Assembly: GCF_902150065.1 (NCBI RefSeq)
Contig: NC_043996.1
Location: 24,796,745 to 24,860,744 of the forward strand
DNA: 64,000 nt
DNA from: Myripristis murdjan
Taxonomy: Eukaryota
Direction: 5' to 3'
Positions 6,056 through 58,705 of this stretch are shown one piece after another. The position numbers were made by a program, and so were the translations under genes. Position 1 is the stretch's first letter; each line of letters opens with the position of its first letter. The notes beneath the pieces were generated by a model. That model was not told the DNA's origin and made no database searches. It saw only the letters and a list, made by a program, of their open reading frames with translations.

Positions 6056-6397
<342 letters not shown>

Positions 6398-24846: not shown

Positions 24847-26625
24847 TTAAATGTACAGTCCGTCCTCCATGGTGCCTTTTGATCGAGTGTGAGAGCCTCG
24901 GCGGGTGGGGTCGTGCCCTCTCTCCCTGTCACTGCCTCTCCTGTCTCTCTCCCTCCGCTGACTCGCCCTGCCGCCGCCGCCCTCAAACTGCATCCTCATG
25001 CTCTCCACTTTGCTCCCTCGTTTCTCCTCCCCTCGCTCCCGTTGGCTCCTCCCTGCCGCTCTTTCGTTGTGTGGCGCCGCCCCTCTCGTGTGCGAGCTCC
25101 TCTTCGCGTCCGATTCCTCCCCCCGTCTGTCCGAACGCTCTCTCCTCGCCGCGGCTTCGTGACTCCGCGATGTCTCTTTCCTCGCCTGGCCCCCCACTTC
25201 TGCTTGTTTCAAGTCTCTTTCCGTCTCTCTCTTTGATTCGCTGCCGTGCTTCTCGTCCTTACTTGCCCTTTCCGCCCTGCAGTCCCTCGCTGGAGCCTTC
25301 TCGGTCCGTCTCTCCTCGTCTCTCTGGTTGCTTCCTCTCGTTTCATCTTTGCTCCGTCTCTCGCTCCTTTCCTTCGTTCTGTCTTTCTCACTCCTGCTGC
25401 CGTGCCGGCTCGAGCTCCCTCTCTCCGCCTCTTTTTCCTTCCTCTCCCGGTCGGCTCCGTGCCGATCTCGATCCCTCTCGCTCGTCGCTCTTTCGCTCTC
25501 CGTGCTGCTCTTCCTCATTTCGGCTCCTCTGTCGCTCCTCGCCCTCTCTGGATCCGCCTTTCCGCTCCAGCTTTCTCTTTTTGGGCCGCCCGACCTGCTT
25601 TTAGCTCGCTCCTGGTCTTTTTCGTTCGTGCTCTTTTCATCCGTCTCTTTCCTCTTCTCTTCTGTCCTCTCCCTCTTGCTAGTTGTGTGTTTTTCCTTTT
25701 CCCGCTTACTCTCGTTTTTCTCCTTTTCGGTGTTCATTTGATTATCCGTTTCTTTCTCCTCCTTCCCTCCTTTGTCAGGTCGTTCCTTGGAACGCTTCTC
25801 CTTGTTTTCTTTCTCAGATTTGACACTCTCACTCTTCTCCTGTTTATTTTCATCCGGTAGCCTCTTCAGCTTGGACTCAGATTTACCCTCCATGATGCCT
25901 TCTTCCTTCTTGCTCTCCTTCTCTCCCTCTACCTTAGCATCCTTTTCTCCTTCCTCCTGTGCTTTCTCCCTCTCCTTAGCCCCTTTATTCTCTGACTCTG
26001 CTTTATCATTCTTGCTCTCCTTCTCTTTCCCCTCCTTCTTGCTCTCCATAGGTCCTTTCTCCTTCATCTGACTCTTCTTTTGCTCCTCCTCGACCTTTTT
26101 GTCCAGTTTCTCCTCCAGGAGGTCCAGCTCCTGCTCCAGCTGAGCCAGCTTCACCGGGTCCGATTCCAAATCGTCTTCCACCTCCACCTCCACCTCCTCG
26201 ATTTCCTCATACTCCTCCACCTCGATGCCGTCCATGGTCTTCTGCAGCTGAGTCTTCACTTTGTTTAGCTCCAGGAGGCCATCTTGGAGGTCTTTACATA
26301 CTTCACGGATCTTGGTAGCGAACTTGGTTTTGGCGCCCTTGCGGAGCTCGTGGGAGTCCTTGGCCAGGAAGAAGACGTCCAGGGCGAGGAACAGGGCTGA
26401 CATGACGCCCGTGGTGACGCTGATGGCCTGGGCGGCTTTGGCGGCGCCGCCCGCCGCGCCGAGGACCTGCACGGTGCTGATGAGCTTGTCGGTGTTGATC
26501 ATCAGGGCCTTGCCGGCTCGACCGCCCTCCTTCATCACGTGCTTGATGTTGTGGTTCAGAGCCTTCTTGGCCGCGCTCTCTGAGTACTTCTCAAAGTCCC
26601 ACTCCTGCAGGGTGTCCATACCTTC
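24847..26625 (-). CDS. ApoL-like gene A terminal exon: C-terminal half of the apolipoprotein-L domain followed by a ~430-aa E/K/R/S/D-rich low-complexity tail, with stop codon
   Basis: Acceptor 'cccctgcag|GAAGGTATGGAC'. The upstream frame is closed by TGA, so the intron is required. The translated sequence GMDTLQEWDFEKY...ALMINTDKLISTVQVLGAAGGAAKAAQAISVTTGVMSALFLALDVFFLAKDSHELRKGAKTKFATKIREV aligns with gene B and with the ApoL family. The tail is rich in EKEK, RERS and RDRDR runs. Confidence 0.7.
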   Translation of the reverse strand, partial: EGMDTLQEWDFEKYSESAAKKALNHNIKHVMKEGGRAGKALMINTDKLISTVQVLGAAGGAAKAAQAISVTTGVMSALFLALDVFFLAKDSHELRKGAKTKFATKIREVCKDLQDGLLELNKVKTQLQKTMDGIEVEEYEEIEEVEVEVEDDLESDPVKLAQLEQELDLLEEKLDKKVEEEQKKSQMKEKGPMESKKEGKEKESKNDKAESENKGAKEREKAQEEGEKDAKVEGEKESKKEEGIMEGKSESKLKRLPDENKQEKSESVKSEKENKEKRSKERPDKGGKEEKETDNQMNTEKEKNESKREKEKHTTSKRERTEEKRKETDEKSTNEKDQERAKSRSGGPKRESWSGKADPERARSDRGAEMRKSSTESERATSERDRDRHGADRERKEKEAERGSSSRHGSRSEKDRTKERSERRSKDETRGSNQRDEERRTEKAPARDCRAERASKDEKHGSESKRETERDLKQAEVGGQARKETSRSHEAAARRERSDRRGEESDAKRSSHTRGAAPHNERAAGRSQRERGEEKRGSKVESMRMQFEGGGGRASQRRERDRRGSDRERGHDPTRRGSHTRSKGTMEDGLYI

Positions 26626-26834
26626 CTGCAGGGGACAGAGAGGACGAGAGGGTCAGGACACTCTCAGACAGAAAGAAACGCGCCATTTTTGATGCATCTG
26701 TGTTTGTAGTTTGAGATGATGACACATTTGGCTACATGTGATGCTTGAATCTGATATAAGTGACTCATAATGGAGAAACGTCTGTGCTGCTTTGCTCCAT
26801 AAAAGCAAATATGCTTTTTTGTCATTGCCAGTGT

Positions 26835-26935: not shown

Positions 26936-27644
26936 CGTTTTCCTCTATGGTCCTAGCCATTCATGCCAAAATGGCAGCGACCCGCACTACATAGATTGAA
27001 ATAGCTTAATCTAAACCCACAAAACACTTTGGCTCTTCATCTTATGTGAGCTGCAGATATGGCAAAGGTACACACATTATTAACTAAAGCAAAGGTACAG
27101 AGACTTGTGTAAAAAAAAAAAAGACTGGTAAAAGTAGCATACTGCTTCAACTTCTTTACTCAAGTAAAAGTAAAAAGTACAGGCTCTGAAATGAAAGTAT
27201 AAAAGTAAAACGTAGCCCTTTACGAGTATTGCTCCAGCCCTTTTTTCGACAACCGGCTGTTTCTGTTAATTATTAGTGGGGTAATAGCATAAGTGCAAAG
27301 CGACCTGAACCTCACATCACATTAATACAATTGCTGTGTTACATCTGTTGAGTGTGATATGCAAGGATGGATACATCATGGGATTTGGGGTGAAATAGGT
27401 CTTGAAGTTGTGAAGGCATGCAAAGCAAAATAAAGGTAATTGATAATTGCCTTTGAATGCATTAAGACTAAAATAGGAAAGCCTGTTTTGAAAATGTAAG
27501 GAATAGATAGTACAGATATTTTTTGTAAAAATGTAGGGAGTAAAAGTAAAATGTTGTAAGAAAAATACATACTGAGATGTATATTTTACTAAATAATCTT
27601 TAATATCAAAAAACTGTTTAAATACAAGTGTAAAAGCTCCTCAC

Positions 27645-28060
27645 CTGTACGAACTCCAAACACTCCCTGATGTCACTGATCTCCTCCTGGTAGCCCTGGA
27701 TCATCTTCTCCACCTTCTTACGATCCATGTTGGAGTGAACCGTGTCTGTGATGTTGGCCGTCGCCGAGGTGATGCTGCCGGCGGTCGCCACGCCGATGCC
27801 CACCGCTGTGACGATGACCGAGGCGCCGAAGGTGAAGGGCGCCAGGATGAGGCCCGTGATGGTGGCCACGCTGCCCGCCACGCTGGCCACCCCTCCCCCC
27901 ACAGCGGCCGTCACCGTCCTCTTGTGGAACTGGTCGGCGGCGTCGGCCTGGGCCAGCAGCTCCAGGATGCGGTGCTGTAAGGACGCCCCCCGCTGGTTGA
28001 AGAGACGCACAAAGAGCCGGGCTGCCATGAACACACGGTCTGCAGCCTGCTCCACCGCCC
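27645..28060 (-). CDS. ApoL-like gene A exon: N-terminal half of the ApoL domain (AVEQAADRVFMAARLF...TVTAAVGGGVASVAGSVATITGLILAPFTFGASVIVTAVGIGVATAGSITSATANI...ECLEFVQ)
   Basis: Acceptor 'tctccag|GGCGGTG' is homologous to the gene B acceptor. Donor 'gtacag|gtgagg'. The Gly/Ala-rich membrane-insertion hairpin is typical of apolipoprotein L. Confidence 0.7.
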
Positions 28061-33135: not shown

Positions 33136-33195
33136 CTGCTGCTCCACTGCTTTAGGAGTCCTCCTGAACATGCCAGCGAACCCCGTTTTCTTTTC
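33136..33195 (-). CDS. Repeat-array exon, basic type (EKKTGFAGMFRRTPKAVEQQ; 60 nt)
   Basis: Acceptor 'ctgacacag'; donor 'cagcag|gtacga'. Shares the motif family [QE]EKGG.FSG.FKK.PK. Confidence 0.5.
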
Positions 33196-33734
33196 CTGTG
33201 TCAGAAACACACGAGGCGGTAAGACAGCGGGCATGCAGACGTGCTGGGAAAATCAAGTGGGATCACTGTGCTCGACTCACTTTTGAGGCGCCTGTCGCTT
33301 CAATCAGATTATCGGTGCTGGCTGACAGTTCACTTTGTGCTAAAAGATTGTCCTAAAAAAAAAAAAAAAAAAAAAAAAAACAAAGAGGAAAAAAGGCTCA
33401 TTTTTAAGCTTCTGTGTTGTCGGCTATCATACAGTGATATTAGGCACATTTTGGGCAGGGGAGAAGAGAAATGATTTCAGCAAAAGGCAAGAAAGAAAGA
33501 CACAAAGCTTCCTGAAGGTCACGAGTTGTTCCTGTGATTAAAATTGCTTGTGGTGATAATACACAAGGCACTTTAGGCAAATTAGAGAGAAAAAAAAATA
33601 GGCCTAAGATGCATTTTTATGGTTCCTGGCAACATGATGTTTTTTATATGAGTGAAGCCACAGTGACGAGGCGGTTCTCGTGCACGGTGTCCTGCCGGTA
33701 TTACCCGACATGGTGGCCCTCAGGTCGCTCTCAC

Positions 33735-33797
33735 CTTGGCGATGTCGGTGAGGCTGTCCCAGCTGGCCGACAGCTCCCTCGAGTCGCTGAGAGGATC
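33735..33797 (-). CDS. Repeat-array exon, acidic type (DPLSDSRELSASWDSLTDIAK; 63 nt)
   Basis: Acceptor 'ttttcccag'; donor 'gccaag|gtgaga'. Carries the LSAS.DSL motif. Confidence 0.5.
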
Positions 33798-34920
33798 CTG
33801 GGAAAAAAACAGCAGGGGTGTTAGACATCACATGTGGGCTGCATTATATTTATATTATATTTTCTAGTTCTGTTTATATTATATATACACTGTTTACATT
33901 TATATAGGCTGTTTATATTTATTACATATACGGTTTATAGTTTATACATGCTGTTTATATTTATACATATTGTTTACAATTGATATATACTGTTTATACT
34001 TATATATTTTATATTTAAATTTTTTTTTCTTTTCCTATTTTTTTTTTTTTTTTTTTTGTTACCTTGCTTTATTTATTTATTTAGGCTTATACTGGGACCT
34101 GAGTCCTAATTTCGTACCATTAACGTGTAAATGTGAGCTGGTATGACAATAAAGTTCCTTGAATCCTTAAATCCTTGATGGCTGTTGTTTTTTTCCCAAG
34201 AAAGCCTGAAGCGTGTGGCGCTGAAGCCAAACACGAAAATGACAAGGTGGAGCGTAGCACTCACACAGTCAGTAGCGGTTTTAGGCACGGGCGAAGCGGG
34301 CAGCCGCCCGGGGCGGCATATATTCATGTCACGTGGGGGGCGGCATGAGAGCAAAAAAAAAAAAAAAATCATCCTCGCTGCAAAGCAGTTTTCTATGACC
34401 GTATTCATCTGCATATAAGACAATATTTTTTCCATTGAAAATGCCCCGAAAAAACGCCCTCGTCTAATATTGGGGTCTAAGCAAACACACATGTATTGTG
34501 CTTGCATATAAACCAGTAGGTGGGCTCGCCTGATACCGCAATTACCGGCGAATGGCCGCATTGCGCAGTCAATAATCAACCATGTTGTCTGTGTCATTGT
34601 CCGCTGTGCTGCTGCAGCCGCGTATGAACAAAAGTTGATTTATAATGAGAGGATGGCAGTATGTGTGCGCCGCTCACCTGTCAGATCCGGCAGACCTGAC
34701 CGGGTGGGCGCGGCACCTGTAGGCATCAAGCCGGTGCCGCGACCGGCCCGCCTGATGCTGACCAGTGGCTTTTTTTTATGCAAACAAGATTTTGTTCATA
34801 TAAAAAGTATTTTTCCAAAAAAGGTATTTGTGCAGGTGTTGGCGCCCCTGCTCTGGGAGGGGCGCGTCTAGCCGCCAGAGGGGCACCGGTAACGGCCGTT
34901 ATCGCTTGGAAGTCCTCGCC

Positions 34921-34950
34921 TTGTGCGCGCGCGCGCGCGCGCACGCGCGG
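34921..34950. repeat. (GC)n dinucleotide tract 'gcgcgcgcgcgcgcgcgcacgcgcgg' (Z-DNA-prone) inside a GC-rich island
   Basis: Seen directly in the sequence. The flanking region 34250-35000 has far higher CpG density than the surrounding introns. Confidence 0.8.
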
Positions 34951-35448
34951 GGCTAGAACGGTAGGGCGCAAGACAGTAATTTCGCCCAGGGCGGCAACAT
35001 GGGCAGAACCGCCACTGCACACAGTTTAGAAACATATTACATAAACCTCAATTACAACATGATTTATTTGGTCATATCAGTGAAAATAATGCACCGACTT
35101 GATCTAGATGGCCTTTATTAGGACATAATGGTATAAGTGAGGTCCTGCATCTTTTTGCTTTATTTTCTGTTTCAACCTGCTTCAGTTATTTGCACATACT
35201 ATTTGACCCTGGTCTGGTTAGCATCTGCTTCTCAGATGGGAGCACAACAAGGGGTCTGAGATGTTTTTTTAAATTTTTAGTTTAAAAAATATGAGTCAGG
35301 CATAATAACTAAAACAATTAGTCTTTGCTAAGGTAGGTAAGGTCTACAAATTGAAATTGAAATTACAATTGAGAAATATCATCAGTATTAGGTTGTTATT
35401 TCAGACACTGATGGGGCTCGGTTGCACCTCTTTTTGTTTTTTTTAATA

Positions 35449-35484
<36 letters not shown>

Positions 35485-35621
35485 CCACTGGTCAGGGCAT
35501 ACTTGGCTGAAAAAATATGTCACATTCATTTTACATTACTGAAAAAAGTTTGAGAACCACTGGCGTAAAGCATGCAGATGAGAGCTCGCGTTGACAGAAA
35601 CACATTTACACACCTGATAAA

Positions 35622-35668
<47 letters not shown>

Positions 35669-35705
35669 TCAACACAAGCCAAACAGAATCACAGTATTTG
35701 CATAC

Positions 35706-35777
35706 CTTGGTGGCGACAGTGCGTGGAGCTGGTTTGGGAGACTTTTTGAAGAAGCCTGAGAGGCCTCCCGCCTTCTC
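35706..35777 (-). CDS. Repeat-array exon, basic type (EKAGGLSGFFKKSPKPAPRTVATK; 72 nt)
   Basis: Acceptor 'gtttttcag'; donor 'accaag|gtatgc'. Confidence 0.55.
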
Positions 35778-35781
35778 CTGA

Positions 35782-35820
<39 letters not shown>

Positions 35821-35923
35821 ACCGTCATCAGTGAAGGACCAGAGAAAACCAGACCGAGACGGAGAAACGGAGAACAAGGTAACATCTCCAGATAATTTAC
35901 TGGGCGTACCTTCGATGCTGTCG

Positions 35924-35992
35924 TGTCTGAGAGGTTTTCACAGCTGGCAGACAACCGGTCCATTCCTGCGTTCGACTCCTGCAACAGGAAAT
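35924..35992 (-). CDS. Repeat-array exon, acidic type (ESNAGMDRLSASCENLSDTTASK)
   Basis: Acceptor 'cctgttgcag'; donor 'tcgaag|gtacgc'. Confidence 0.55.
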
Positions 35993-36116
35993 AAAGCGCG
36001 GTACAGACTAAAGCCAGTGCAATGAGCAATGTGGCTAAGACTTTAAAGGCAAAGTTCACTTTAAATATCCTGTTTAATGTGCTGTAAACTTCTGTGTCAA
36101 GGTTGAATAAAGTCAC

Positions 36117-36183
36117 CTCATCTGCTGTAGTCTCCTCTGCTGGTTTAGGAGCCTTCTTAAATATCCCACTGAAAATATTTTTC
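36117..36183 (-). CDS. Repeat-array exon, basic type (EKNIFSGIFKKAPKPAEETTADE)
   Basis: Acceptor 'ctttag'; donor 'gatgag|gtgact'. Confidence 0.5.
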
Positions 36184-36536
36184 TCCTAAAGAAAATACAG
36201 TCAACAATACTCAGGTTACCCAAAATATATCAGCATTACAACAGTGGAGCTCTGGACAGAAGACGGACAAACTGAAATCCAAAGCTTTTAGGCAGCAACA
36301 TGTGGACTCGTGATGAATTGAAAAGCAAAATTACAGAACTTGCATAATATTCAGATTTTTTTTTTTTTTTTTTTTACAGTAAAAGCACGACAACAACCAG
36401 TGAAAACTAAATGAAACATTTTGGTTCCATTACTTGTTGCGGCAGGTTAAAATACACATTTTAAAGTTGCTTCAGGTCCCAGATCTTTCTGTTTAATTCA
36501 AAAGCAGCGATATTTCTCATCGTACCTTAGTGCTGA

Positions 36537-36590
36537 TGTTCTCCGACAGGCTGTCATTGCTTGCAAAGAGCTCTTTGTCCTGAGACAGAG
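36537..36590 (-). CDS. Repeat-array exon, acidic type (DKELFASNDSLSENISTK; 54 nt)
   Basis: Acceptor 'tgtctcag'; donor 'actaag|gtacga'. Confidence 0.55.
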
Positions 36591-36665
36591 AAGTGAACTC
36601 AATTTCAGCACATAAAAATCACAGAGGTGACGCTGTATGAGTGAATATGACACCAGACGCACGCT

Positions 36666-36737
36666 CACCTGACCAGCAGCCTCTTCTCCAGAGGCTTTGG
36701 GTGTTTTCTTGAGGAGTCCGCTGAACAGCCCTCCTTT
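36666..36737 (-). CDS. Repeat-array exon, basic type (EKGGLFSGLLKKTPKASGEEAAGQ; 72 nt)
   Basis: Acceptor 'tgttcaccag'; donor 'ggtcag|gtgagc'. Confidence 0.55.
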
Positions 36738-37013
36738 CTCCTGGTGAACAGAGAGAGGGGTTAGACTAGGGAAAAAAAAAACAAGTAAATTTAATGCGAA
36801 TTCTGAAATTCCCATTAAACTGTGGTGAGGTCAATCAAAAAATTCCAACCAACAGTATATTGCAGATTTTGAACAGTCCTTGCATTAAGATAAAAGCGCC
36901 TTTCGTTAAGTCCCGCCCCAACATCCAGTTTCAACAGGATTTGAATCAAATTCAAGGAAGCAAGATGCTTTTTCAGTCCTGCTCCAGGCCGTGACGTGTG
37001 ACACTGACCTCAC

Positions 37014-37076
37014 TGTCAAACAGGTCGTCAGTGCTGGCGGACCTCTTGAATATGCCGGACAGGCCTCCCTTCTTCT
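37014..37076 (-). CDS. Repeat-array exon, basic type (EKKGGLSGIFKRSASTDDLFDSE)
   Basis: Acceptor 'ctgttttag'; donor 'agtgag|gtcagt'. Confidence 0.45.
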
Positions 37077-37401
37077 CCTAAAACAGACACTTCAGTTATT
37101 TCAGAAAACTTAATGTTCGCAAAAACAAGAGGAAAACGGGTTCAGCGTGGTTTCCACCATCTGATCAGAACCACAAAGCAGATTTAACTCATTTTGCTAC
37201 TGAATTATGAGGATCCCTTGGGAAAGGTAATGAACTGTGAACATAGTAATACAATAATAAGAACATAATGTTAAGCTTTATGAGCAGTTTAAGAGCAATG
37301 CAAGATTAAAGTAAAATTAAGATAATATTAAAACAGAAAAATAAAAGATGCAAGAGGGAAGATCTTCTATAAGACCAAGCTGAGAGAAAAATGAGAATGA
37401 A

Positions 37402-37473
37402 CCTTGGGGACGGTGGTTTGTATGAGATTCTCACAGCTTCCAGAGATCTGCTCTCGGCTGCTCTCCTCCAGCT
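37402..37473 (-). CDS. Repeat-array exon, acidic type, copy 4 of the tandem unit (ELEESSREQISGSCENLIQTTVPK)
   Basis: Acceptor 'ggactcag'; donor 'ccccaag|gttcat', which is a weak donor. Confidence 0.4.
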
Positions 37474-37561
37474 CCTGAGTCCAGACAGAAAAAGGTGAAC
37501 ACACAAACGCTCGGTCCTCAGGATACAAATAATGAGAGTTTTAAAAACTGTGGTCAAATAC

Positions 37562-37630
37562 CTCGTCTGTTGTGGCTCCATCAGCTGGTTTCTGTGGCTT
37601 CTTAAACATGTTGCTGAAGATGCTTTTCTC
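37562..37630 (-). CDS. Repeat-array exon, basic type, copy 4 of the tandem unit (EKSIFSNMFKKPQKPADGATTDE)
   Basis: Acceptor 'catgtttcag'; donor 'gacgag|gtattt'. Confidence 0.5.
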
Positions 37631-37924
37631 CTGAAACATGACAGAAATGATTTGAACAAAAAGGTTTTCTCATTTTATCTACAAGAGCGCATTCAGGTAT
37701 CAGGAAAGGCAAAAAAATGATATTTTAACATCTCTACTATAAACACAGTGAAGCAATGTAAACAGAATTATCATCTCATATTGTCTGTTTCATGTTGCAT
37801 ATTTTTATGGGAAGCATCTTTGGGTCTCTTGAAATCCCCTATGTAAATTTAAATTCTTCTTCTTCTTAATATACTCTTATCTCTACATGATCAGGTGTTA
37901 ATATTCACAAAGAAAGACAAAAAT

Positions 37925-37995
37925 GAGAATGAACCTTGGGGACGGTGGTTTGTATGAGATTCTCACAGCTTCCAGAGATCTGCTCTCGGCTGCTC
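37925..37995 (-). CDS. Repeat-array exon, acidic type, tandem copy 3
   Basis: Near-identical to 37402-37473 and sits inside the ~535-bp tandem unit. Confidence 0.4.
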
Positions 37996-38103
37996 TCCTC
38001 CAGCTCCTGGGTCCAGACAGAAAAAGGTGAACACACAAACGCTCGGTCCTCAGGATACAAATAATAAGAATTTAAAATTAAAATTAAAATTTTTGTTCAC
38101 ATA

Positions 38104-38173
38104 CCTCGTCTGTTGTGGCTCCATCAGCTGGTTTCTGCGGCTTCTTAAACATGTTGCTGAAGATGCTTTTCTC
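38104..38173 (-). CDS. Repeat-array exon, basic type, tandem copy 3 (EKSIFSNMFKKPQKPADGATTDE)
   Basis: Carries the same flanks as 37562-37630. Confidence 0.5.
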
Positions 38174-38458
38174 CTGAAACATGACAGAAATGATTTGTAC
38201 AAAAGGTTTTCTCATTTTATCTACAAGAGCTTGTTCAGGAATCAGGAAAGGGAAAAAATGATACTTTAACATCTCTACTGTAAACACAGTAAAGCAATGT
38301 AAACATTATCATTATCATCTCCTATTGTCTGTTTCACGTTGCATGTTTTTATGTAAAGCATCTTTGGGTCCCTTGAAATCCGCTATGTAATGTTATTATT
38401 ATCATCACTACACTCGTATCTCTACATGGTCAGGTGTTTATTTTCACAAAAAAATGAG

Positions 38459-38530
38459 AATGAACCTTGGGGACGGTGGTTTGTGTGAGATTCTCACAGC
38501 TTCCAGAGATCTGCTCTCGGCTGCTCTCCT
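38459..38530 (-). CDS. Repeat-array exon, acidic type, tandem copy 2 (ELEESSREQISGSCENLTQTTVPK)
   Basis: Tandem-unit copy. Confidence 0.4.
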
Positions 38531-38627
38531 CCAGCTCCTGAGTCCAGACAGAAAAAGGTGAACACACAAACGCTCGGTCCTCATGATACAAATAATGAGC
38601 AACTTTTAGATTTGGTTCACATACCTC

Positions 38628-38696
38628 GTCTGTTGTGGCTCCATCAGCTGGTTTCTGCGGCTTCTTAAACATGTTGCTGAAGATGCTTTTCTCCTG
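38628..38696 (-). CDS. Repeat-array exon, basic type, tandem copy 2
   Basis: Tandem-unit copy. Confidence 0.5.
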
Positions 38697-39004
38697 AAAC
38701 ATGACAGAAATTATTTGAACAAAAAGGTTTTCTCATTTCATCTACAAGAGCTCATTCAGGTAACAGAATCAGTATTGGAAAGGGAAAAAAATGATATTTT
38801 AACATCTCTACTATAAACACAGTGAAGCAATGGAAACAGAATTATCATCTCATATCGTCTGTTTCATGTTGCATTATTTTATGGAAAGCATCTTTGGGTT
38901 TCTTGAAATCCGCTATGTACATTTAAATTCTTCTTCTTATTATCATCACTACACTCTTATCTCTGCATGATCAGGTTTCAGTATTCACAAAAAAAAAGAC
39001 AAAA

Positions 39005-39076
39005 ATGAAAATGAACCTTGGGGACGGTGGTTTGTATGAGATTCTCACAGCTTCCAGAGATCTGCTCTCGGCTGCT
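39005..39076 (-). CDS. Repeat-array exon, acidic type, tandem copy 1
   Basis: Tandem-unit copy. Confidence 0.4.
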
Positions 39077-39176
39077 CTCCTCCAGCTCCTGAGTCCAGAC
39101 AGAAAAAGGTGAACACACAAACGCTCGGTCCTCATGATACAAATAATTAGAATTTTAAAAACTGTGGTCAAATACC

Positions 39177-39245
39177 TCGTCTGTTGTGGCTCCATCAGCT
39201 GGTTTCTGCGGCTTCTTAAACATGTTGCTGAAGATGTTTTTCTCC
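39177..39245 (-). CDS. Repeat-array exon, basic type, tandem copy 1 (EKNIFSNMFKKPQKPADGATTDE)
   Basis: Tandem-unit copy with one substitution (S to N). Confidence 0.5.
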
Positions 39246-39339
39246 TGAAACATGCCAGAAATGAATTTGAAGGTGTGACTGAAAAGTGCCTGTCTGGTCA
39301 TTTTACCTGCAGGAGCTCGTCACAAAGCGACTCACTTTA

Positions 39340-39405
39340 CTGCTGCTGTTCTCAGACAGGTTGTCCCTGCTGGACGAGAGCTCTTTCTGGGCGTCTTTGT
39401 CCTGA
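39340..39405 (-). CDS. Repeat-array exon, acidic type (DKDAQKELSSSRDNLSENSSSK)
   Basis: Acceptor 'ctgtttcag'; donor 'agtaaa|gtgagt'. Confidence 0.5.
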
Positions 39406-39490
39406 AACAGAGAAATTTGTGTCGGATGAAACTGTGAGGAAAGTGAACGGAGGCTTGGACGGCGCCTTTATAATCACAACGAGTCTCTCA

Positions 39491-39561
39491 CCTGTGAATC
39501 GGCCTTTTCTCCAGGCGCTTTGGGGGTCTTTTTGAGGAGCCCGCTGAACAGCCCGCCTCTC
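39491..39561 (-). CDS. Repeat-array exon, basic type (ERGGLFSGLLKKTPKAPGEKADSQ)
   Basis: Acceptor 'tgcaccag'; donor 'tcacag|gtgaga'. Confidence 0.55.
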
Positions 39562-39676
39562 TCCTGGTGCACAGACAAACAAATATTTACATATCAAAAG
39601 GTGAATTATCAAATGGTCATTTTACTGAAACAAATGAATCACAAACCCAGTTCATTTAGTCTGAAACCCTGACCGA

Positions 39677-39736
39677 CCTTGTTGTCAGATAAACTCTCAT
39701 TGCTGGCAGAGAGCTCGCCATGCAGAGACTCCTTAT
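39677..39736 (-). CDS. Repeat-array exon, acidic type (DKESLHGELSASNESLSDNK)
   Basis: Acceptor 'ctacag'; donor 'aacaag|gtcggt'. Confidence 0.5.
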
Positions 39737-39892
39737 CCTGTAGAAAAATAAATAAATCACAAATAACCATGAAACTTGCAGTAATAGCAAATGTTATGCA
39801 GTCAAGACTCAGTAAAAATGACAAAAATTTGGAAATAAATGGAGTTGCTGCTGTAAACAGTGTCCAAGGAAAAATGCTGCAATTATGATTTA

Positions 39893-39933
<41 letters not shown>

Positions 39934-40084
39934 CCACTGCTTTTTCCACTCAAAACAACACAAACAGTGTAAATGAGGATACAAACTATGAAGGATGAAA
40001 AATGACAAAACAATAAACAAATGAATAAATAAATAAATACACATATATAAATGCACGAATAATTAAATTAATAAATATTTCTAC

Positions 40085-40345
40085 ATGTATTTATTTATTT
40101 ATTTCTGTTTTTATTCATGCATTTATTTATTTATTTGTGTATTTATACATTTATGCATGTATGTATTTATTTATTTCTACATTTATTTATTTATATATTC
40201 ATTTATTTATACATTTATTTATTTATTTGTGTATTTATATATTTATTTTTACATTTATTTATTTAGATTTTTATTTATTTATACATTTATTCATTTATTT
40301 ATTCCTTCATGTACATTTATTTATTTATTCCTACATTTATGCAGT
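40085..40345. repeat. Low-complexity (TTTATTTA / TTTAC)n tract of about 260 bp
   Basis: 'tatttatttatttctgtttttattcatgcatttatttatttatttgtgtatttatacatttatgcatg...' It creates spurious Leu/Ile/Tyr/Phe ORFs (40085..40429 and 40137..40439). Confidence 0.85.
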
Positions 40346-40644
40346 CAAGAACAAACAAATTTCCAAACAAAATTTGGAAATAAATGGAGTTGCTGCTGCA
40401 GTGTCCAGGGAAAAATGCTGCAATTATGATTTAAAATAAATAAATAAATAAATAAAATCCACTGCTTTTTCCACTCAAAACAACACAAACAGTGTAAATG
40501 AGGATACAAACAATATAAAGGTTGGGATAACAGAGGAGGAGGGGTTCTTTTGAAAATGAAACCGAAATAGAAACAATGCAGTGTAACAGTTTATCTTTAT
40601 AACTGAGCACTGCTCCAGACAGCGGACCAGAAAAATGTACTTAC

Positions 40645-40698
40645 CTCTTCAGGTTTAGGAGACCTCCTGAACATTGCACTGAATATTCCTCCTTTCTC
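40645..40698 (-). CDS. Repeat-array exon, basic type (EKGGIFSAMFRRSPKPEE)
   Basis: Acceptor 'gtgtttcag'; donor 'gaagag|gtaagt'. Confidence 0.55.
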
Positions 40699-40787
40699 CT
40701 GAAACACACACACGATGAGGGTTATCTTGGGGAAATGTGAAGCTGATCAGTGTAAATTGCAGGTAAAAGGATGCAGGTAAACTCACG

Positions 40788-40853
40788 GTGGTGCTGTTCT
40801 CACACAGACTGTCGCTGCTGGCTGAGAGCCTGCCGTCTCCGGGCTGCTTGTCC
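40788..40853 (-). CDS. Repeat-array exon, acidic type (DKQPGDGRLSASSDSLCENSTT)
   Basis: Acceptor 'cctgtcag'; donor 'accacc|gtgagt'. Confidence 0.5.
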
Positions 40854-41089
40854 TGACAGGAGATCACATCAGTCAGGAATTTTTACCCACAACAGCTAAA
40901 AATGGCCTTCCACTTAATAATTACAACAGTCTCTTAAGGTTTATTTAAACAGGGAAGCACAGAAATTTCTCAAGGATGCCTTGCTCAAGAGCAGGAGTAA
41001 AGAGAGTTAGTCATTCAGTTACTGTAAAAAATAATAATAATAATAAAAAAAATAAAATACTGTAATGAAAGTAGAGGTGAAACTGCACA

Positions 41090-41164
41090 CCTCCTCTGTG
41101 TGAGGATCATCTGCGAGTCGGGACGTCTTCTTCAACTTTACGCCGAACACGCTTCCTTTCTCCT
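41090..41164 (-). CDS. Repeat-array exon, basic type (EKGSVFGVKLKKTSRLADDPHTEE)
   Basis: Acceptor 'gtgtttcag'; donor 'gaggag|gtgtgc'. Confidence 0.5.
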
Positions 41165-42370
41165 GAAACACCAAGGAGCTGCTCAGTTGAATTAATTGAA
41201 ATGTACCTGAATTAAAGCTACATTTTCCCCTTTTTAAATGGGTAAAAAACTGGTAAAAAAAAAAAAAAAAAAAAAAACAAGGCCAAAAACGACTGAGGTG
41301 TTTACCACTTACTGCTGTGCTTCTCACTTCTGTCTCCTTTATGGAAATTTGATTTAAAAATCTGTATCCTTTACCAAATCAGTATCATTCCACCTTATAA
41401 CCACAAACAAATGAGATCATTGTGGAGGAGACCATCAACCGCTCTGCTGTATTTCAAATCATTTACCACCAGGCTTCAGATTTCATGAGAAAACTGCTTT
41501 AGGGCACAAAAACAGAGAAGCGGGATCTGTTCTTAAAGGGAAAACATGAATTTCAGTTTTATGCGATGGTGGATTAAGTGAAAGGCTGATGGTGGAAAAA
41601 AATCACTTCAAACATGTCGATCCTCTTTAAAACAGGATAAAAATGCACACCAGGAAACGAGACCCTTCTTGCTGTTGACTGGCAGCAACATCACAAAGGC
41701 TCATGGGAAGTGTAGTTTTCATTTTGAAAGACAGAATCATGGACTGCACGTGTGGCCTGAGATATAGAGACTTCAAACACTACATAAGTACCATCTTTGA
41801 TGAAAACTGACTGTGTTTCAAACAAATCACATTTCTGTTAAGCAGTGTTGTCTTTAACTTGTCGCATTACATTCATCTGTAACGCAGTAATGTAACATGT
41901 TACCGTTCCTTAATCCATTAATCACATTACAGTTACAAATCAAACAATTGTGGTGTTTCTTGAGCTACATAAGTTCTCTGCATAACAGGTGGGAGAGACG
42001 ACAAAATGACAGAGCGGTCTACAACTTCTGAGGTGCGGCCATCTGCACATTACTGAGAACTTGTTGAACTGAGGTATTAATTATTAAAGAGCATCAAAGA
42101 GATAATTTGTGTATGCCCTTTACATTAAGATGGAGATTTGTGCTGATTCGTAGGCAGATGTAAGGTTTATCATCACACTGTTAACTGGCAGAACATGAAG
42201 ATGCAGCTCAGGTGATGTTGTGGAGTAACACAAATAATGTACTTTCCACAGGTGGTAACTAAGAAAAGCAACGCATTACTTTTTAAAACACTAACGAGTA
42301 ATGTGTACAATACATGACATTACAACAGTGGTTTTTAGACGCACGGGTTTCTGACGGTGGCAGTGACTCA

Positions 42371-42443
42371 CCTTGGTGTTGCTGCTGCTCTCAGACAGGC
42401 TGTCGCTGCTGGCAGAGAGATCTTTCTGAGCAGAGAGATTCTC
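42371..42443 (-). CDS. Repeat-array exon, acidic type (ENLSAQKDLSASSDSLSESSSNTK)
   Basis: Acceptor 'ttgtttcag'; donor 'accaag|gtgagt'. Confidence 0.55.
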
Positions 42444-42700
42444 CTGAAACAAAACGACAGCGGAGTAAATCATAATCATAAATCATCAAAGTGAGGTGAA
42501 AGAGCGGTCAACATCCACGAAGGAAACTGCTCCAACAGCTCATGGTCTGTCATGTTGTGAAACCCCTTCGCTCAGTGTTGGATCTATACAGAGCAGCAGC
42601 TGTTTCTGAGAGAGTGAGAAGCTGTGTGGTTTGTTTGGACGGTCTGCAGAAAAAAAACGAACCGTTCTGCTGTGTTTGTGGGATGCAGACCCACCTGCGC

Positions 42701-42762
42701 CTCTCCGGGGGCTCGGGGCGTCTTCCTGAGGAGCCCGCTGAACAGCCCGCCTCTCTCCTGTG
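42701..42762 (-). CDS. Repeat-array exon, basic type (ERGGLFSGLLRKTPRAPGEAQ)
   Basis: Acceptor 'agccacag'; donor 'gcgcag|gtgggt'. Confidence 0.5.
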
Positions 42763-43026
42763 GCTGAAAACACAGCACAACAGCTTTAAAGCACTCAGAC
42801 GACTTACGCTCCTGAATTTCAAAGGTAACGTCATTTTTCCAGCCACGGCCCCAGACAGGTTTCAGGGGAAAAAAAAACAAAACAAAACCACCACCAGAAA
42901 AAGAAAAAAAAAAAACAATCCACCCCCGGGTCTATTTTCATGTTCGTCACAGTGACTCATCAGGTTTCTGTGGGTGTCTGGTTAGTTTTCTGAAAGTTTA
43001 AACACAGCTTTGTAATTTAGACTTAC

Positions 43027-43087
43027 TTTGCTCTCTGACAGACTGTCATTGCTGGCAGACAGCTCGCTGTGCAGCGACGCCTTATCC
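43027..43087 (-). CDS. Repeat-array exon, acidic type (DKASLHSELSASNDSLSESK)
   Basis: Acceptor 'ttttgcag'; donor 'caaag|taagtc' (boundary ambiguous by ±1 nt). Confidence 0.45.
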
Positions 43088-43929
43088 TGCAAAAAAAAAA
43101 AAAAAAGAAGAAGAAGTTAGCAAACATGAGTAAACACAACAAACACCGACAAACATGACACTGATAACGGAGGCAGACAAACAGGGATGAATTCTGGGTA
43201 AAATAAGACTTGACTGAATGGCACTCGGCAGGAAACTCACTCTGTAATTTCCTTGATATAAGTTTTTTAATGCCAGAATTTATTCATTTATTTATGGTTC
43301 TCCTTATTCTTGTGTGAATGATATTGCTAATAGTGTTGTAATATACAGAGGACACTGTTTTTGTTTTGTTTGTTTGTTGCTGCGACTTTCCCTTTCAATA
43401 AAATTTAAGTCCTGAAATAAATGACAGTATAATTACAGTAAAATTAGAATAATTTCATTGATTCATCTCTGTTTATCTCAATCAGTCAAGATGTGTAACA
43501 GTACTGATGGCATAGATTGACATTTCACCTGAAATGAGATTAGATTAGATACAATTAGATGAGAATAGATTAGATTAGATTAGATTAATTGACACTTTTA
43601 TGATTCTAGTGGTGCAATTGGGCCCCAGCATTGGGAAACAGTTAATAATAAAATAATAAAATAATAATAAAATTACAAAGGAATAGAACAAATGGCAGTT
43701 ATTTAAAAATATAAAACTGACGCATCAACACTCATTTTATATTAAAGTATGTAAAAAAAAAAAAAGTCAGCATGAGGCTTGCCAAAGGCTTGCCCTGTTC
43801 AAAATCATGCATCTTGTAGGAATGAAACTCCTTTCTTAAAAAAAAAAAAAAAAAGCGATTTAAGTTAGAAAACGGAGGATGAGCACAGCAAGTCAAAAGT
43901 CGGGGCTAAGGACAAACGTTTCCAGTCAC

Positions 43930-44002
43930 CTCGTCTTGTTGGGGGGCTTCAGACGTTTTGGGCGTTTTCTTGAACATTCCTCCGAACACACTTCCTTTCT
44001 CC
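43930..44002 (-). CDS. Repeat-array exon, basic type (EKGSVFGGMFKKTPKTSEAPQQDE)
   Basis: Acceptor 'gttcattag'; donor 'gacgag|gtgact'. Confidence 0.5.
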
Positions 44003-44150
44003 TAATGAACAGAAAAAAAAACTGGGTGTCTGTTTGGCTCTAACTTCTTTGTAAAGACGAGACAGGGATGTGTAAAGCTGCAAAAATCTGATTAAACTGT
44101 TTGTTATACGGACAGTGATGAACTGAAGGATCTGGATGCTCTCTGTACCT

Positions 44151-44210
44151 TGTTGTTGCTGTTCTCATTCAGACTGTCGCTGCTGGCTGACAGCTCACTC
44201 TGCTTGTCCT
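44151..44210 (-). CDS. Repeat-array exon, acidic type (DKQSELSASSDSLNENSNNK)
   Basis: Acceptor 'gtgtttcag'; donor 'aacaag|gtacag'. Confidence 0.55.
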
Positions 44211-44512
44211 GAAACACAAATCAGAAAAAAAAAACAGTTGAGTCAAATGAGACAGATATGACAAATCGATGTATTTATGCCATTTCAGTGGTTTATGATT
44301 TGATCAATCAATGGAAATCCACCCTTTGGTCCAATCAGCAACAAGAACAGCATCATTAAATCTGGACCAGAGGTGTTACAGTCAGCTTTAAATTGTGAGT
44401 CAGCTACAATGCATCTACATGCTATGTTTTTTGGCATAGAAGTTACTATCACACTATCACACTTAAATCTCCATCGCCCCCATGTGTAGATTTCTCTGTC
44501 ACACACACATTA

Positions 44513-44586
44513 CCTGCCCAGGTGTCACCTCTCCAGGTGGCTTGGGAGACTTGCGAAGGATCCCGCTGAAAAATCCCCCCTTTTCC
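44513..44586 (-). CDS. Repeat-array exon, basic type (ERGGFFSGILRKSPKPPGEVTPGQ)
   Basis: Acceptor 'gtcagcag'; donor 'gggcag|gtaatg'. Confidence 0.5.
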
Positions 44587-44688
44587 TGCTGACATCACAC
44601 CAGTTAGTTGTATTAGCAGAAGCCGTTACACAACAATATGAGCATAATCCCATGAATTCACAGATGAATACTTCCAAACGCACCTTTG

Positions 44689-44751
44689 AGGTTTCAGACA
44701 GATTGTCGCTACTGCCCGACAGATCGCTGTGCAACGACTGCCGGTCCTGAG
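44689..44751 (-). CDS. Repeat-array exon, acidic type (DRQSLHSDLSGSSDNLSETSK)
   Basis: Acceptor 'gtctctcag'; donor 'tcaaag|gtgcgt'. Confidence 0.55.
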
Positions 44752-45574
44752 AGACAAAACGAACAGAGTCAGTACAAACATCAGGCAACAAGATTTGTCC
44801 AGTGATACTTGACCTTTTTGGCTCTGCATGAATAACTGAATTTTAATAATTTAACAGCTGATGACACAAACGCAGGCAGCTTGACTCATTCAGATTCAGT
44901 GAAAATCACGACTTTTCAAGCAAAATGTAACTGGGCAGATACACAAAGAGCTTTTTTGTGATAAAGATAATATTCAACAACATTTCTGGATAAGGATTTT
45001 TTTTCGATTTTCTCCTGTTTTTTTGCTCTTATGTATAGGCTATGTTTTGAAGGGGATGCAGTTTATTGCAACCATTACTCTGGTGTGGCCGGCAACACTC
45101 TGCGGCCACTGAATCACCGTCATTTCACAACCACAGGAAAGATTAGTCAGACACACTTCTGTCACGACATCGAACTACACATGCTGTCAAAAAGATTTGT
45201 TTAGTCCCAAAAGCTGCAACGCCTGTCAAGCGATGGTAAAATGACCAATGGGACGGCTGTGAAGACATTAAATGAACTTGGATATATAGACATACAGACA
45301 GACAGATGCACTTTATTGATCCATAATGCAACATTGCACAGGGATAATAATAAAGGCTGCACATATATGCCTTTCAGCACTAGAAGAGAGAAATAAATAT
45401 CTTTAGAAAAGTAAATACAACAAAGAACAAAATAAAATAAAGTAGGTCAATGCAAAGAATATGAGAAAAAAAAACTTCTCATACCTTATAAGAGTAATAA
45501 AATAAGTTAAACATACTAAAATATATGTATAGGTTATCTATAAAGCATTCAGTGAACGTCATTACCTCTTCAGG

Positions 45575-45647
45575 TGGAGCGGCTTCTGTTGTTCTGGGAG
45601 ATTTCTTGAACATCCCACTGAATATTCCTCCTTTCTCCTGAGGCAGA
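45575..45647 (-). CDS. Repeat-array exon, basic type (EKGGIFSGMFKKSPRTTEAAPPEE)
   Basis: Acceptor 'ctgcctcag'; donor 'gaagag|gtaatg'. Confidence 0.55.
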
Positions 45648-45764
45648 CACACGAAATAACTGTTTTTGTCAGGTGAATGACGGCCTGCATGTTTTTATGT
45701 CTGCACTATAATGACTTGCATTATCTCGGCTCTCATGTCAGGTAAATGTGGAGCTGCTCACCTT

Positions 45765-45823
45765 GCCGTTGTTCTCCGACAGGCCGTCGCTGCCGGCTGC
45801 CGGCTCGCTCAGATCCTCCTGAA
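45765..45823 (-). CDS. Repeat-array exon, acidic type (EDLSEPAAGSDGLSENNGK)
   Basis: Acceptor 'ctgcttcag'; donor 'ggcaag|gtgagc'. Confidence 0.5.
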
Positions 45824-45994
45824 GCAGCAAACATCAGTAAAATGAAATAAACACAGGCGGAAATATTTATTGCTATACATTGTGTGGTGGAAGACTTTAT
45901 CCAAAACACCTCATGTTACCAGATAAAAAGGCATTTTCAGCGTTTTAGTTTCAGAGGGTGGGAAGAAATCACTGTTGGGTCTAGTTCACCTGTG

Positions 45995-46060
45995 CAGCCG
46001 CCTCATCTGCTGGTCTGTGGGATTTTTTCAGAATGCCAAAGAAGCTTCCTTTCTCCTGCA
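45995..46060 (-). CDS. Repeat-array exon, basic type (EKGSFFGILKKSHRPADEAAAQ)
   Basis: Acceptor 'ctctgcag'; donor 'gcacag|gtgaac'. Confidence 0.5.
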
Positions 46061-46809
46061 GAGGGAGAAAAAAATTGTTTTCAACACGTTTTTAAAAGTG
46101 TTGCATAAAACACAACACTTGACGAGTGTCCGAATGTCTATCATGAGTAGAATCAGACCCATAAATCTGGAGTTTATGCCCTGACTGATACACCCAGAAC
46201 CGCATCACATGAACAACTAAATCTGATATTTGATCCAACATGGATTCACATCTACATTCTCATTGATTTTATTTATTTTATTGTCATTACAAACTTAATT
46301 GTGCTTATTTTAGGATCATCATTTATCCCTGGTTTCTATGCACTTCCATATTTTTTGTACTTTTAAATCCAAGAGTTTGCACCTTTAGTGGCATTGTGTT
46401 TGTTTGACATGAGATCATTATGTATTTGCCTTTAATTTAATCATTTTTTATATTTGCGTTTGTATATGTGGTCATTTCCTTTACTCAAATTTCATCTGCT
46501 TTATGTGAGTTTATTTCTTTTATGCGTGCTTGACATCGAGTTACATGGTGCACATTTTTTATTTTTATTCTGTAAATCCTTGAACCTGGAAAGGACTTTT
46601 GCTTGAGCTTGAAAAGTGCAATATAATTAAAAAATACTATTATCATTATTATAATATAGATTCAGATGTACATTGTCATTGCACACCCTTCATATTACAC
46701 CAGCTGACAGACGCTGGTCAGTTTTTTATTAATTTGCATGATTATTTGACTGCGTCTCAAACTGAACTACAACAAGAGAAGCCGCTGAAACAAAACCTAC
46801 ATGTGTGTG

Positions 46810-46869
46810 TTCAGATGTTTTCTCCTCTGCGTCATCGGCGTCACTGTCCACTGTGCTGACCTGGCAGAC
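46810..46869 (-). CDS. Candidate array exon, divergent acidic type (VSTVDSDADDAEEKTSEHT)
   Basis: Acceptor 'gtctgccag'; donor 'acacat|gtaggt'. Weaker match to the family. Confidence 0.3.
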
Positions 46870-47007
46870 ACAAAAAAATAACATTGACATGAGTCCAGAA
46901 TATTCTGTCAGCAGCAGATTCAGAAACGAAGCACTGAGAGGAAAAGGGTTAGTGAGAGCAAGAACGAGACCGGGAGTGAAATTAAATATCAAACGACGGA
47001 GAGAGCC

Positions 47008-47096
47008 GATGTTACCGTCACTGCAGGAGACGGAGCTTTCTCTTTCTCTTTGGGTGTTTTCCTGAACATCCCGGCGATGAGGCCTCCTTTGTCCTG
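47008..47096 (-). CDS. Repeat-array exon, basic type (DKGGLIAGMFRKTPKEKEKAPSPAVT)
   Basis: Acceptor 'tgttccag'; donor 'tgacg|gtaaca'. Confidence 0.4.
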
Positions 47097-57750: not shown

Positions 57751-58705
57751 TCAGACATATTCACGGTTTTCATAATCCTTTTTGATGGCTTTTTTAATGC
57801 GGTCAATTTCATCTTCTGAACTGTCAGAGTTCTCATCTTTCTCTTTGTTGGCATTGTCTGAGGTAGCTGTGTTATCACTGCTGTTGTTTTCTTGTGGGCT
57901 GGTGGACTGCAGCTCCTCTCGTATCCCGTTGAGCTCCACCAGACCTTCGTGCAGCTGCCCAGCAACCTCTCTGATTTTGGCAGCAAACTCTGATTTGGCC
58001 CCTTTCTTGAGTTCTTTTGAGTCTTTGGCCACAAAGTAGATGTCCATACCTACAAAGAGTCCGGTGAGCACCCCAGTAGCCATACTGGCGATCTGAACTG
58101 CTCTGGCTGCTGTGCTGCCTGCCACGTTGGCAATCTGCACCACGCGCATGATCTCATTAGCATTGATGAGGATAGCCTTGCCCACCATGGCGCCGTCCTC
58201 ATAAATATTGTTAAGCGCAGGGAAGTCCCGGTTGTAGGCATGCTTTTTCATCTTGATCAGGTCGAACTTACGCAGGTTCTCAATTCCCTGCTTGATGAAC
58301 ATCATGCACTTATTGAGGTCGGCCATCTTTTCCTGGTAGTCCTCAACTATTTTCTCCACCTTCTTGCGGTCCATGGAGTTGTTAACCTGGTTAGAGATGC
58401 CAGCACCGGCTGAGGTAAGACCGCCAGCTGTGGCCACGCCAAGCCCCACCGCTGTGACAATCAAGGAGGTTCCCATGGTGACAGGGGCTAGAGCCAGGCC
58501 AGCGATAGTGGCCACACCCCCGATAGCACTGGTGGAGCCGCCAGTGATTTGGGCAATCTTTGTGTTCTTGTTGAATTTGTCCAGGCCGTCAGCGATGGCA
58601 TTGAGGTCGATGACGTGCTGCCACAGGCTCTCTGCTCGCTCTGAGAACAGCTTGTTGAAGACACGGATACCTTTCTGCACCTTCTCCGCTGTCACAGCAA
58701 ACGCC
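57751..58705 (-). CDS. ApoL-like gene B terminal exon: a complete apolipoprotein-L domain in a single exon plus a short acidic tail (…SSEDEIDRIKKAIKKDYENREYV*)
   Basis: Acceptor 'ccacccag|GGCGTTTGC'. The translation AFAVTAEKVQKGIRVFNKLF...IAQITGGSTSAIGGVATIAGLALAPVTMGTSLIVTAVGLGVATAGGLTSAGAGI...MDIYFVAKDSKELKKGAKSEFAAKIREV is paralogous to gene A and to the ApoL family. Confidence 0.75.

Follow-up and report, generated by a model that had tools for sequence, protein, structure and literature searches.

A tandemly repeated two-exon block in the mini-exon array of a teleost ApoL-domain gene

Host gene and mini-exon array

We analyzed a 64,000-nucleotide stretch of the Myripristis murdjan genome (contig NC_043996.1, positions 24,796,745 to 24,860,744; hereafter the window, with coordinates counted from its first letter), in which a block of two small exons is repeated head to tail within a teleost gene coding for an ApoL-domain protein. 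The host gene lies on the minus strand, and tblastn searches with two orthologous proteins, P0001 from Scomber and P0029, placed its colinear exons from at least 50442 down to 24850. The ApoL-domain exon (27642–28058, minus strand) matches PF05461 with an E-value of 1.5e-21 and is 90% identical to the Scomber orthologue, and the terminal exon (24850–26631, minus strand) encodes the C-terminal part of the ApoL domain followed by a K/E/R/S-rich tail of ~450 residues. Both regions score above the Pfam gathering cut-off of 25.9 bits (77.6 bits for 28058–27642 and 34 bits for 26652–24850), and the host gene is a member of the Apolipoprotein L family. The terminal exon is located inside a stop-free stretch of 601 codons (24850–26652, minus strand), whose last ~450 residues are of extremely K/E/R/S-rich low complexity. 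This tail is conserved in outline among orthologues, which end in ...EDGLNI where the window sequence ends in ...EDGLYI.

The N-terminal half of the host gene is an array of about 35 exons of 54–78 nt, all multiples of three (33136–47093, minus strand), and the amplified block is located in the middle of it. Array exons alternate between a Phe/Lys type (e.g. EKGGLFSGLLKKTPK) and a Ser/Asp/Glu type (e.g. DKxxLSASSDSLSENSxxK). When concatenated, they matched teleost proteins of 800–1200 residues with E-values down to 7e-209; among the matches listed, most carry PF05461 and all those with a named source are from teleosts. The homologues are called 'apolipoprotein L1 isoform X' or 'apold1a', or bear misnomers such as claspin-like, titin homolog, starmaker-like, dentin sialophosphoprotein and piccolo. 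The annotation of the Cottoperca gobio locus (L005, 1–2723 and 3001–11165) splits the array and the ApoL part into two models, P0007 and P0048. Public annotation of this gene family suffers systematically from such inconsistent naming and splitting. No Pfam family was found over the array in a search to an E-value of 1, no PDB sequence resembled it in a sequence search to an E-value of 10, and a literature search returned no paper naming 'apold1a'.

Structure of the repeated block

A sequence-only reading of this DNA had proposed a four-fold repeat of a ~535-bp unit that extends from 37386 to 39545. With the first proposed unit (37386–37922) as a BLASTN query against the whole window, copies were recovered at 37919–38454 (88.6% identity over 543 aligned columns, E = 0), 38450–39004 (90.5% over 558 columns, E = 0) and 39001–39271 (97.0% over 271 columns, E = 9e-129). 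The sole further match in the 64 kb was a 77-bp segment of 75% identity at 36115–36190, which corresponds to an older paralogous exon. It belongs to a pair encoding EKNIFSGIFKKAPKPAEETTADE and ESNAGMDRLSASCENLSDTTASK (35910–36185, minus strand; BLASTN and alignment) that is also present in Scomber and Dissostichus, and only its basic exon still aligns. A repeat search of the window (family D3) gave unit spacings of 532, 531 and 551 bp, and full units are about 531–551 bp long. TRF did not report the tandem repeat because the period of the unit exceeds the longest period of that program, 500 bp.

A MAFFT alignment of the four copies revealed the layout (A-B)3-A on the minus strand, all copies being arranged head to tail. 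The proposed amplification is therefore real, but it comprises three full units and a truncated fourth of 271 bp, which consists of the exon-bearing part A alone and lacks the spacer B; the exon pair is present in all four. Read on the transcribed strand, segment A (~271 bp) places its 69-nt exon after 27 nt of acceptor flank and its 72-nt exon after an 87-nt intron, and extends 16–17 nt past the donor of the latter exon. The first such segment, A1, occupies 37386–37657 (17 nt, the acidic exon, the 87-nt intron, the basic exon and the 27-nt acceptor flank, in window order). It is followed by B1 at 37658–37918, A2 at 37919–38200, B2 at 38201–38449, A3 at 38450–38720, B3 at 38721–39000 and A4 at 39001–39271, all on the minus strand, with the A segments delimited by BLASTN and alignment and the spacers by alignment and identity comparison. 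An 11-nt insertion extends the short intron of A2 to 98 nt, compared with 87 nt in the other copies. The spacer, which forms part of the long intron, measures 250–280 bp and is confined to the gaps between A copies; B2 is the most divergent of the three (87–89% identical to B1 and B3), and A4 is 97% identical to A1. Sequence on both sides, below 37386 and above 39271, is unique. The repeat thus stops at 39271 rather than 39545, and the interval 39272–39545 is occupied by older, non-amplified array exons (39401–39336 and the start of 39563–39492). We also checked whether identity between the units falls to the background of the array once they are properly aligned. It stays far above that level, and elsewhere in the array exons alone align. 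With head-to-tail copies that include their introns and a similarity far above chance, the block is a tandem exon-block duplication.

A second local duplication (39858–39989 and 40399–40514, 89–92% identity, spacing 525–541 bp) is located within the 907-nt intron just upstream of the amplified block, where it brackets a (TATT)n / 72-mer microsatellite at 40012–40340. This duplication suggests that the neighborhood is prone to slippage or unequal exchange.

The eight amplified exons

Each unit carries, in window order, an acidic exon of 72 nt and a basic-motif exon of 69 nt, both on the minus strand. In the first unit, the acidic exon (37403–37474) encodes ELEESSREQISGSCENLIQTTVPK and has the donor AAG|GTTCAT, and the basic-motif exon (37562–37630) encodes EKSIFSNMFKKPQKPADGATTDE. 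The same two peptides are encoded in the second unit at 37935–38006 and 38105–38173. The third acidic exon (38466–38537) encodes ELEESSREQISGSCENLTQTTVPK, with an I to T change, next to an unchanged EKSIFSNMFKKPQKPADGATTDE (38625–38693), and in the fourth unit an unchanged ELEESSREQISGSCENLIQTTVPK (39017–39088) accompanies a basic-motif exon with an S to N change, EKNIFSNMFKKPQKPADGATTDE (39176–39244). The exon peptides can be summarized as EK[SN]IFSNMFKKPQKPADGATTDE for the basic-motif exon and ELEESSREQISGSCENL[IT]QTTVPK for the acidic exon, exactly as they had been quoted before, including the S/N and I/T changes. Each of the eight exons is bounded by AG and GT, has a length divisible by three and is free of stops, and the pair encodes 47 residues, intact and in frame, in all four A segments.

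The description of the pair as one acidic and one basic exon was accurate for the former, which has a net charge of -3. The "basic" exon has a net charge of 0: it opens with the Phe/Lys motif EK[SN]IFSNMFKKPQKP, its Lys-rich first 15 residues have a pI of 10, and it then continues into an acidic C-terminal tail. The 47-residue module as a whole has a pI of 4.7 and a net charge of -3.

The copies keep their splice sites and reading frame, although the donor of the acidic exon is weak. In all four copies (37395–37402, 37927–37934, 38458–38465 and 39009–39016) it reads AAG|GTTCAT, with T at +3 and no G at +5. Among the 35 array exons, position +3 of the donor is a purine in 29, C in two and T in four, the last being exactly the amplified acidic exons; in the alignment, orthologues and the older paralogue in the window have a GTAC donor at the acidic exon. 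The weak donor either predates the amplification or spread with it, and the amplified acidic exons are candidates for frequent skipping, or even non-use. Acceptors of all eight exons have good pyrimidine tracts, and the donors of the basic-motif exons are GTATGT or GTATTT. The introns, at 87–323 nt, are not too short for splicing. In unit 3 alone, the 87-nt short intron (38538–38624) is open in frame, and its retention would leave the frame unbroken; this is probably a chance occurrence.

Predicted transcripts of orthologues give some indication of how the array may be used. NCBI-predicted isoforms X1–X13 of the Micropterus salmoides orthologue differ by single array exons (X3 is without a 19-residue basic exon, X4 without a 20-residue acidic exon and X5 without a 21-residue exon). 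These are predictions in an orthologue, and the skipped exons differ from the amplified ones; cassette behavior of the amplified exons is plausible in this light. The predicted proteins P0003 of Dissostichus and P0004 of Notothenia carry the orthologous exon two or three times in succession, which argues for additive rather than mutually exclusive use. Judged by these predicted notothenioid proteins as a proxy, the copies would not behave as a mutually exclusive cluster with one copy per transcript.

Predicted properties of the module

A single-sequence AlphaFold2 model of the four modules and their flanks had a mean pLDDT of 56. Predicted helices of 34 residues (pLDDT about 70–75) spanned each acidic exon and the first residues of the next basic exon. 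Their helical hydrophobic moment was 0.12–0.14, no greater than that of shuffled sequences (P about 0.5), and an apolipoprotein-like amphipathic helix of the ApoA-I or perilipin-4 type is thus unsupported. A WH2 / thymosin 'LKKT' or MARCKS-like motif in the basic exons is speculative; no Pfam match (E-value up to 1) or PDB match (E-value up to 10) was found for it, and LKKT is not conserved across these exons. The array would probably form an N-terminal region that is charged and for the most part disordered, with short patches of Phe/Lys between Ser/acidic patches that could be phosphorylated. On this view, the amplification would raise the number of one module subtype, 'NIF', which is without the Gly-Gly of the generic basic exon.

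Divergence among the copies

Pairwise identities were computed without gaps, region by region. Exons are 97–100% identical among copies and have no indels, the short intron is 85–97% identical, and spacer B, representing the long intron, is 87–92% identical with numerous indels. The earlier figure of over 90% identity including introns was therefore slightly high. Among the four copies, variable sites number 3 of 141 in exons and 23 of 130 in introns (Fisher p = 1.3e-5), and among the three full copies, 2 of 141 and 58 of 370 (p = 7e-7). Of the three changes in the exons, one is synonymous and two alter an amino acid; the copy-specific variants are AGC/AAC at the S/N site, ATA/ACA at the I/T site, and CCA/CCG. 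Exons are so much better conserved than introns that the copies must have been kept or homogenized over time, not just made.

One stretch of intron is as invariant as the exons. It comprises the final 57 nt of the short intron, directly before the acidic exon (37475–37531 and equivalents), where only two sites vary among the four copies. The alignment revealed no conservation of this stretch outside the block, whether in the older paralogue or in the corresponding introns of Dissostichus and Cololabis. A deeply conserved splicing element is thus unsupported, and the stretch may instead be the trace of gene conversion or a splicing element peculiar to this lineage.

Jukes-Cantor distances among the B copies are about 0.08–0.14. 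With an assumed teleost neutral rate of roughly 2–5e-9 per site per year, and provided that the local rate is not unusual, the age of the copies would lie between millions and tens of millions of years.

Comparison with other fish

The locus was compared with Scomber, Cololabis, Dissostichus, Notothenia, Cottoperca, Tautogolabrus and Micropterus; the best match to the array came from Scomber, at 51% identity. A single orthologous pair was found in each of two species: in the Scomber protein P0001 it reads EKNIFSNMFKKPQKPAEGAAAEK followed by ELSSENQLSGSCDNLSDTAAPK, and in the Cololabis locus L004 it lies at 15513 and 15667. When these pairs are aligned with the copies in the window, the exons align clearly and the introns are unalignable. 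The four-fold state was seen in none of the fish compared and appears to be derived relative to the orthologues, in a comparison with species that are not close relatives.

Other duplications were found in the orthologous arrays. Dissostichus (L001, 8490–10503) has a ~700-bp unit in about three copies of 83–90% identity; this unit has four exons, judging from the predicted protein P0003, and the orthologous NIFSNMFKKPQKP exon is among them, alongside other partners than in the window. Exon junctions specific to the Dissostichus unit also occur in the Notothenia protein P0004. Notothenia thus appears to share the Dissostichus amplification, which appears to be older than the split of these genera, and such arrays can therefore persist across genera. 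Cottoperca (L005) has a ~935-bp unit in two copies of 68% identity. In Cololabis (L004, 10867–15462), a three-exon unit of 2.2–2.5 kb is present in two copies of 84–88% identity and ends just upstream of the NIF exon. The Scomber protein has an identical 43-residue exon pair twice, elsewhere in the array, and no such long-period duplication was found in Tautogolabrus (L003). The array has been remodeled independently in other fish, and the number of modules is evolutionarily labile.

The region of the NIFSNMFKKPQKP exon was amplified in the window species, in Dissostichus together with Notothenia, and in Cottoperca, and the Cololabis duplication ends just upstream of it. It could be proposed that the array is a fast-evolving, selection-driven module counter, in which at least three lineages amplified the region around this exon, each within unit boundaries of its own. 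We regard this proposal as very doubtful. If true, it would point to a recombination hotspot, or to convergent selection for more copies of the motif in an ApoL-family effector, possibly in host defense, and would bear a loose resemblance to the fast evolution of the APOL genes of primates.

Origin of the block and alternative explanations

We favor, with a probability of roughly 75%, the explanation that a two-exon block was duplicated in tandem within the mini-exon array of the teleost long ApoL-domain gene, and that the copies are old and their exons have been maintained. An (A-B)3-A arrangement with unique flanks is the layout that unequal homologous recombination between A copies would yield once two of them flank a B; duplication of a single segment would leave B beside one of the flanks, unlike the observed layout. 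Most likely, in a first step, two A copies would have come to flank B, and in a second, misaligned A copies would have recombined unequally, adding A-B units. Expansion by unequal crossing-over, as proposed earlier, fits this layout, but its very recent timing does not agree with our data. Since both exons are multiples of three, each unit that is spliced in would add one 47-residue module to the low-complexity N-terminal region and leave the frame unchanged, and any subset of units could be skipped in the same way. The exons may be maintained by purifying selection, gene conversion, or both.

Several points weigh against this explanation. It does not account for the source of the first A-B-A or of spacer B. 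Derivation of the spacer from the flanking introns, from introns of the older paralogue, from a repeat elsewhere in the window or from the orthologous loci L001–L004 is unsupported: in none of these was a relative found, scores never exceeded those of shuffled controls and every E-value was above 0.07. Inclusion of the four copies in mRNA is something we infer, and the acidic exons may be poorly spliced from their atypical GTTCAT donor. Part of the conservation of the exons may come from conversion tracts and not from selection on the protein, given that the 57-nt intron stretch is equally invariant. In addition, site patterns are mosaic: units 1 and 4 group against units 2 and 3 in the short intron, and B1 and B3 group against B2 in the spacer. 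No simple order of duplication can therefore be reconstructed from these conflicting groupings. Finally, the age figure hangs on assumed neutral rates.

Mosaic patterns are expected where copies have exchanged sequence, and it is possible, if well short of even odds, that the duplication is old and under concerted evolution. The copies would then be much older than their identity implies, and conversion centered on A would homogenize the exons and the nearby intron. The conflict of groupings between segments is consistent with this possibility, as are the low-divergence tracts, which include the 57 nt of intron unconserved between species, and the outermost A copies, which are 97% identical when the B spacers differ by 8–13%. 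However, the presence of a single pair in Scomber and Cololabis indicates that the duplication is not ancient at the teleost scale, and selection on exons and A-centered gene conversion are inseparable from one genome. Concerted evolution is a refinement of the favored explanation, duplication with maintained exons, rather than an alternative to it.

It is also conceivable, although unlikely, that the duplicated exons are pseudo-exons in a block that was duplicated neutrally within an intron-rich region, and that splicing seldom if ever brings the copies into mRNA. The weak donor in all four acidic copies would fit such a scenario, and so would the longest predicted Micropterus isoform, which is without the orthologous NIFSNMFKK exon; moreover, substitutions are so few that open frames are expected by chance. 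Yet variable sites are about 8-fold rarer in exons than in introns, and indels are absent from the exons. Predicted proteins of Scomber, Dissostichus, Notothenia, Cololabis and others do contain the orthologous exons, and the good acceptors and the donors of the basic-motif exons also argue against pseudo-exons.

The sequence-only reading had described the expansion as very recent and still growing, with a repeat number that is likely polymorphic. If so, the block would be a minisatellite-like array, polymorphic in copy number and expanding by ongoing unequal crossing-over, which we find quite unlikely. It is true that (A-B)3-A is the kind of structure that recombines unequally, that A1 and A4 are 97% identical and that the mosaic site patterns suggest exchange between copies. 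But full units are only 88.6–90.5% identical, with indels of up to about 12 nt, and the introns differ by 8–15% (the spacers alone by 8–13%). The conservation of exons well past that of introns needs time, and the comparable array in Dissostichus appears to be common to Notothenia. Copy-number-polymorphic intragenic repeats, such as LPA kringle IV-2 (KIV-2) and the triplicate region of nebulin (NEB), have nearly identical units, unlike those in the window, whose introns are 85–92% identical and carry many indels. The same evidence of intron divergence, exon–intron contrast and notothenioid persistence speaks against the idea that the array is still growing.

Lastly, tandem repeats are error-prone in assemblies, but false expansion of one unit or stacking of haplotypes is exceedingly improbable here, as the copies differ by 3–13% and carry copy-specific indels and two amino-acid changes, whereas haplotype stacking or polishing would yield near-identical copies, and similar arrays are present in independent assemblies of other fish.

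Neighboring genes and other features of the window

A second ApoL gene adjoins the host gene at 57754–58794 (minus strand; PF05461, E = 1e-38) and continues upstream to about 63300. It is 92% identical to Diretmus and 91% identical to Lampris 'apolipoprotein L1', which assigns it to the conserved apol1 type of teleosts. In other fish, long apol1-type isoforms also have an N-terminal EKGGxFSGMFKK/acidic array, and most of the array matches are of the apol1 type; both neighboring paralogues therefore share the array architecture. The zebrafish APOL1 kidney literature (PMC4492502, PMC4854397) concerns this neighboring conserved 'apol1' type.

An exon at 6056–6397 (plus strand) encodes an RRM domain (PF00076, E = 8e-14) and belongs to an unrelated neighboring gene, by eye RALY or hnRNP-C-like. 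An interstitial telomere-like repeat, (CCTAAC) x 5.5, is located at 13420–13452. A DOMON-like exon suspected at 17086–16781 had no Pfam match and is not claimed, and an Rfam scan of the whole window gave no match.

Comparison with known systems

The host protein resembles the Apolipoprotein L family in that it carries PF05461, and its gene adjoins a second ApoL gene. To our knowledge, mammalian APOL proteins have no such N-terminal mini-exon array. The modest value of the observation lies in its location, an ApoL-domain gene found across many teleosts with ~35 frame-preserving mini-exons, which is uncharacterized and badly annotated. If the modules are expressed, the block would provide a compact natural series for the effect of module number in a charged low-complexity region on an ApoL-type membrane protein, and the locus would aid annotators in merging split or misnamed gene models.

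In general, genes can grow and gain alternative splicing by tandem duplication of exons (reviewed in PMC9013439, PMC9741552 and PMC8373072). The block in the window resembles such duplications in having head-to-tail exons with their introns, retained splice sites and a preserved frame. However, well-studied cases mostly involve single exons that are mutually exclusive, one copy substituting for another, whereas here a two-exon block is repeated and the annotations of orthologues carry copies in series, so that copies would add up.

The PEVK region of titin and the triplicate region of nebulin, both muscle filament proteins, offer a second comparison. Like the window gene, they have long runs of short frame-keeping exons, alternating charged low-complexity motifs and tandem multi-exon blocks; exon skipping in these regions is extensive, and the human triplicated blocks are about 99% identical. 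They are unrelated in sequence to the window protein, whose host is an ApoL-domain protein.

Another parallel is the KIV-2 repeat of LPA, a 5.5-kb two-exon unit that is present in 1 to more than 40 copies and is highly polymorphic in humans. In both cases the unit is exactly two exons with their introns, each unit adding one in-frame protein module. The window unit is ten times shorter, and its module is a 47-residue low-complexity segment instead of a folded domain. The near-identical units of KIV-2 differ in number from one individual to another, whereas intron identity here is 85–92%. The kind of event is already known: an exon-block duplication that lengthens a repetitive, probably disordered protein region, fairly ordinary and not especially recent.

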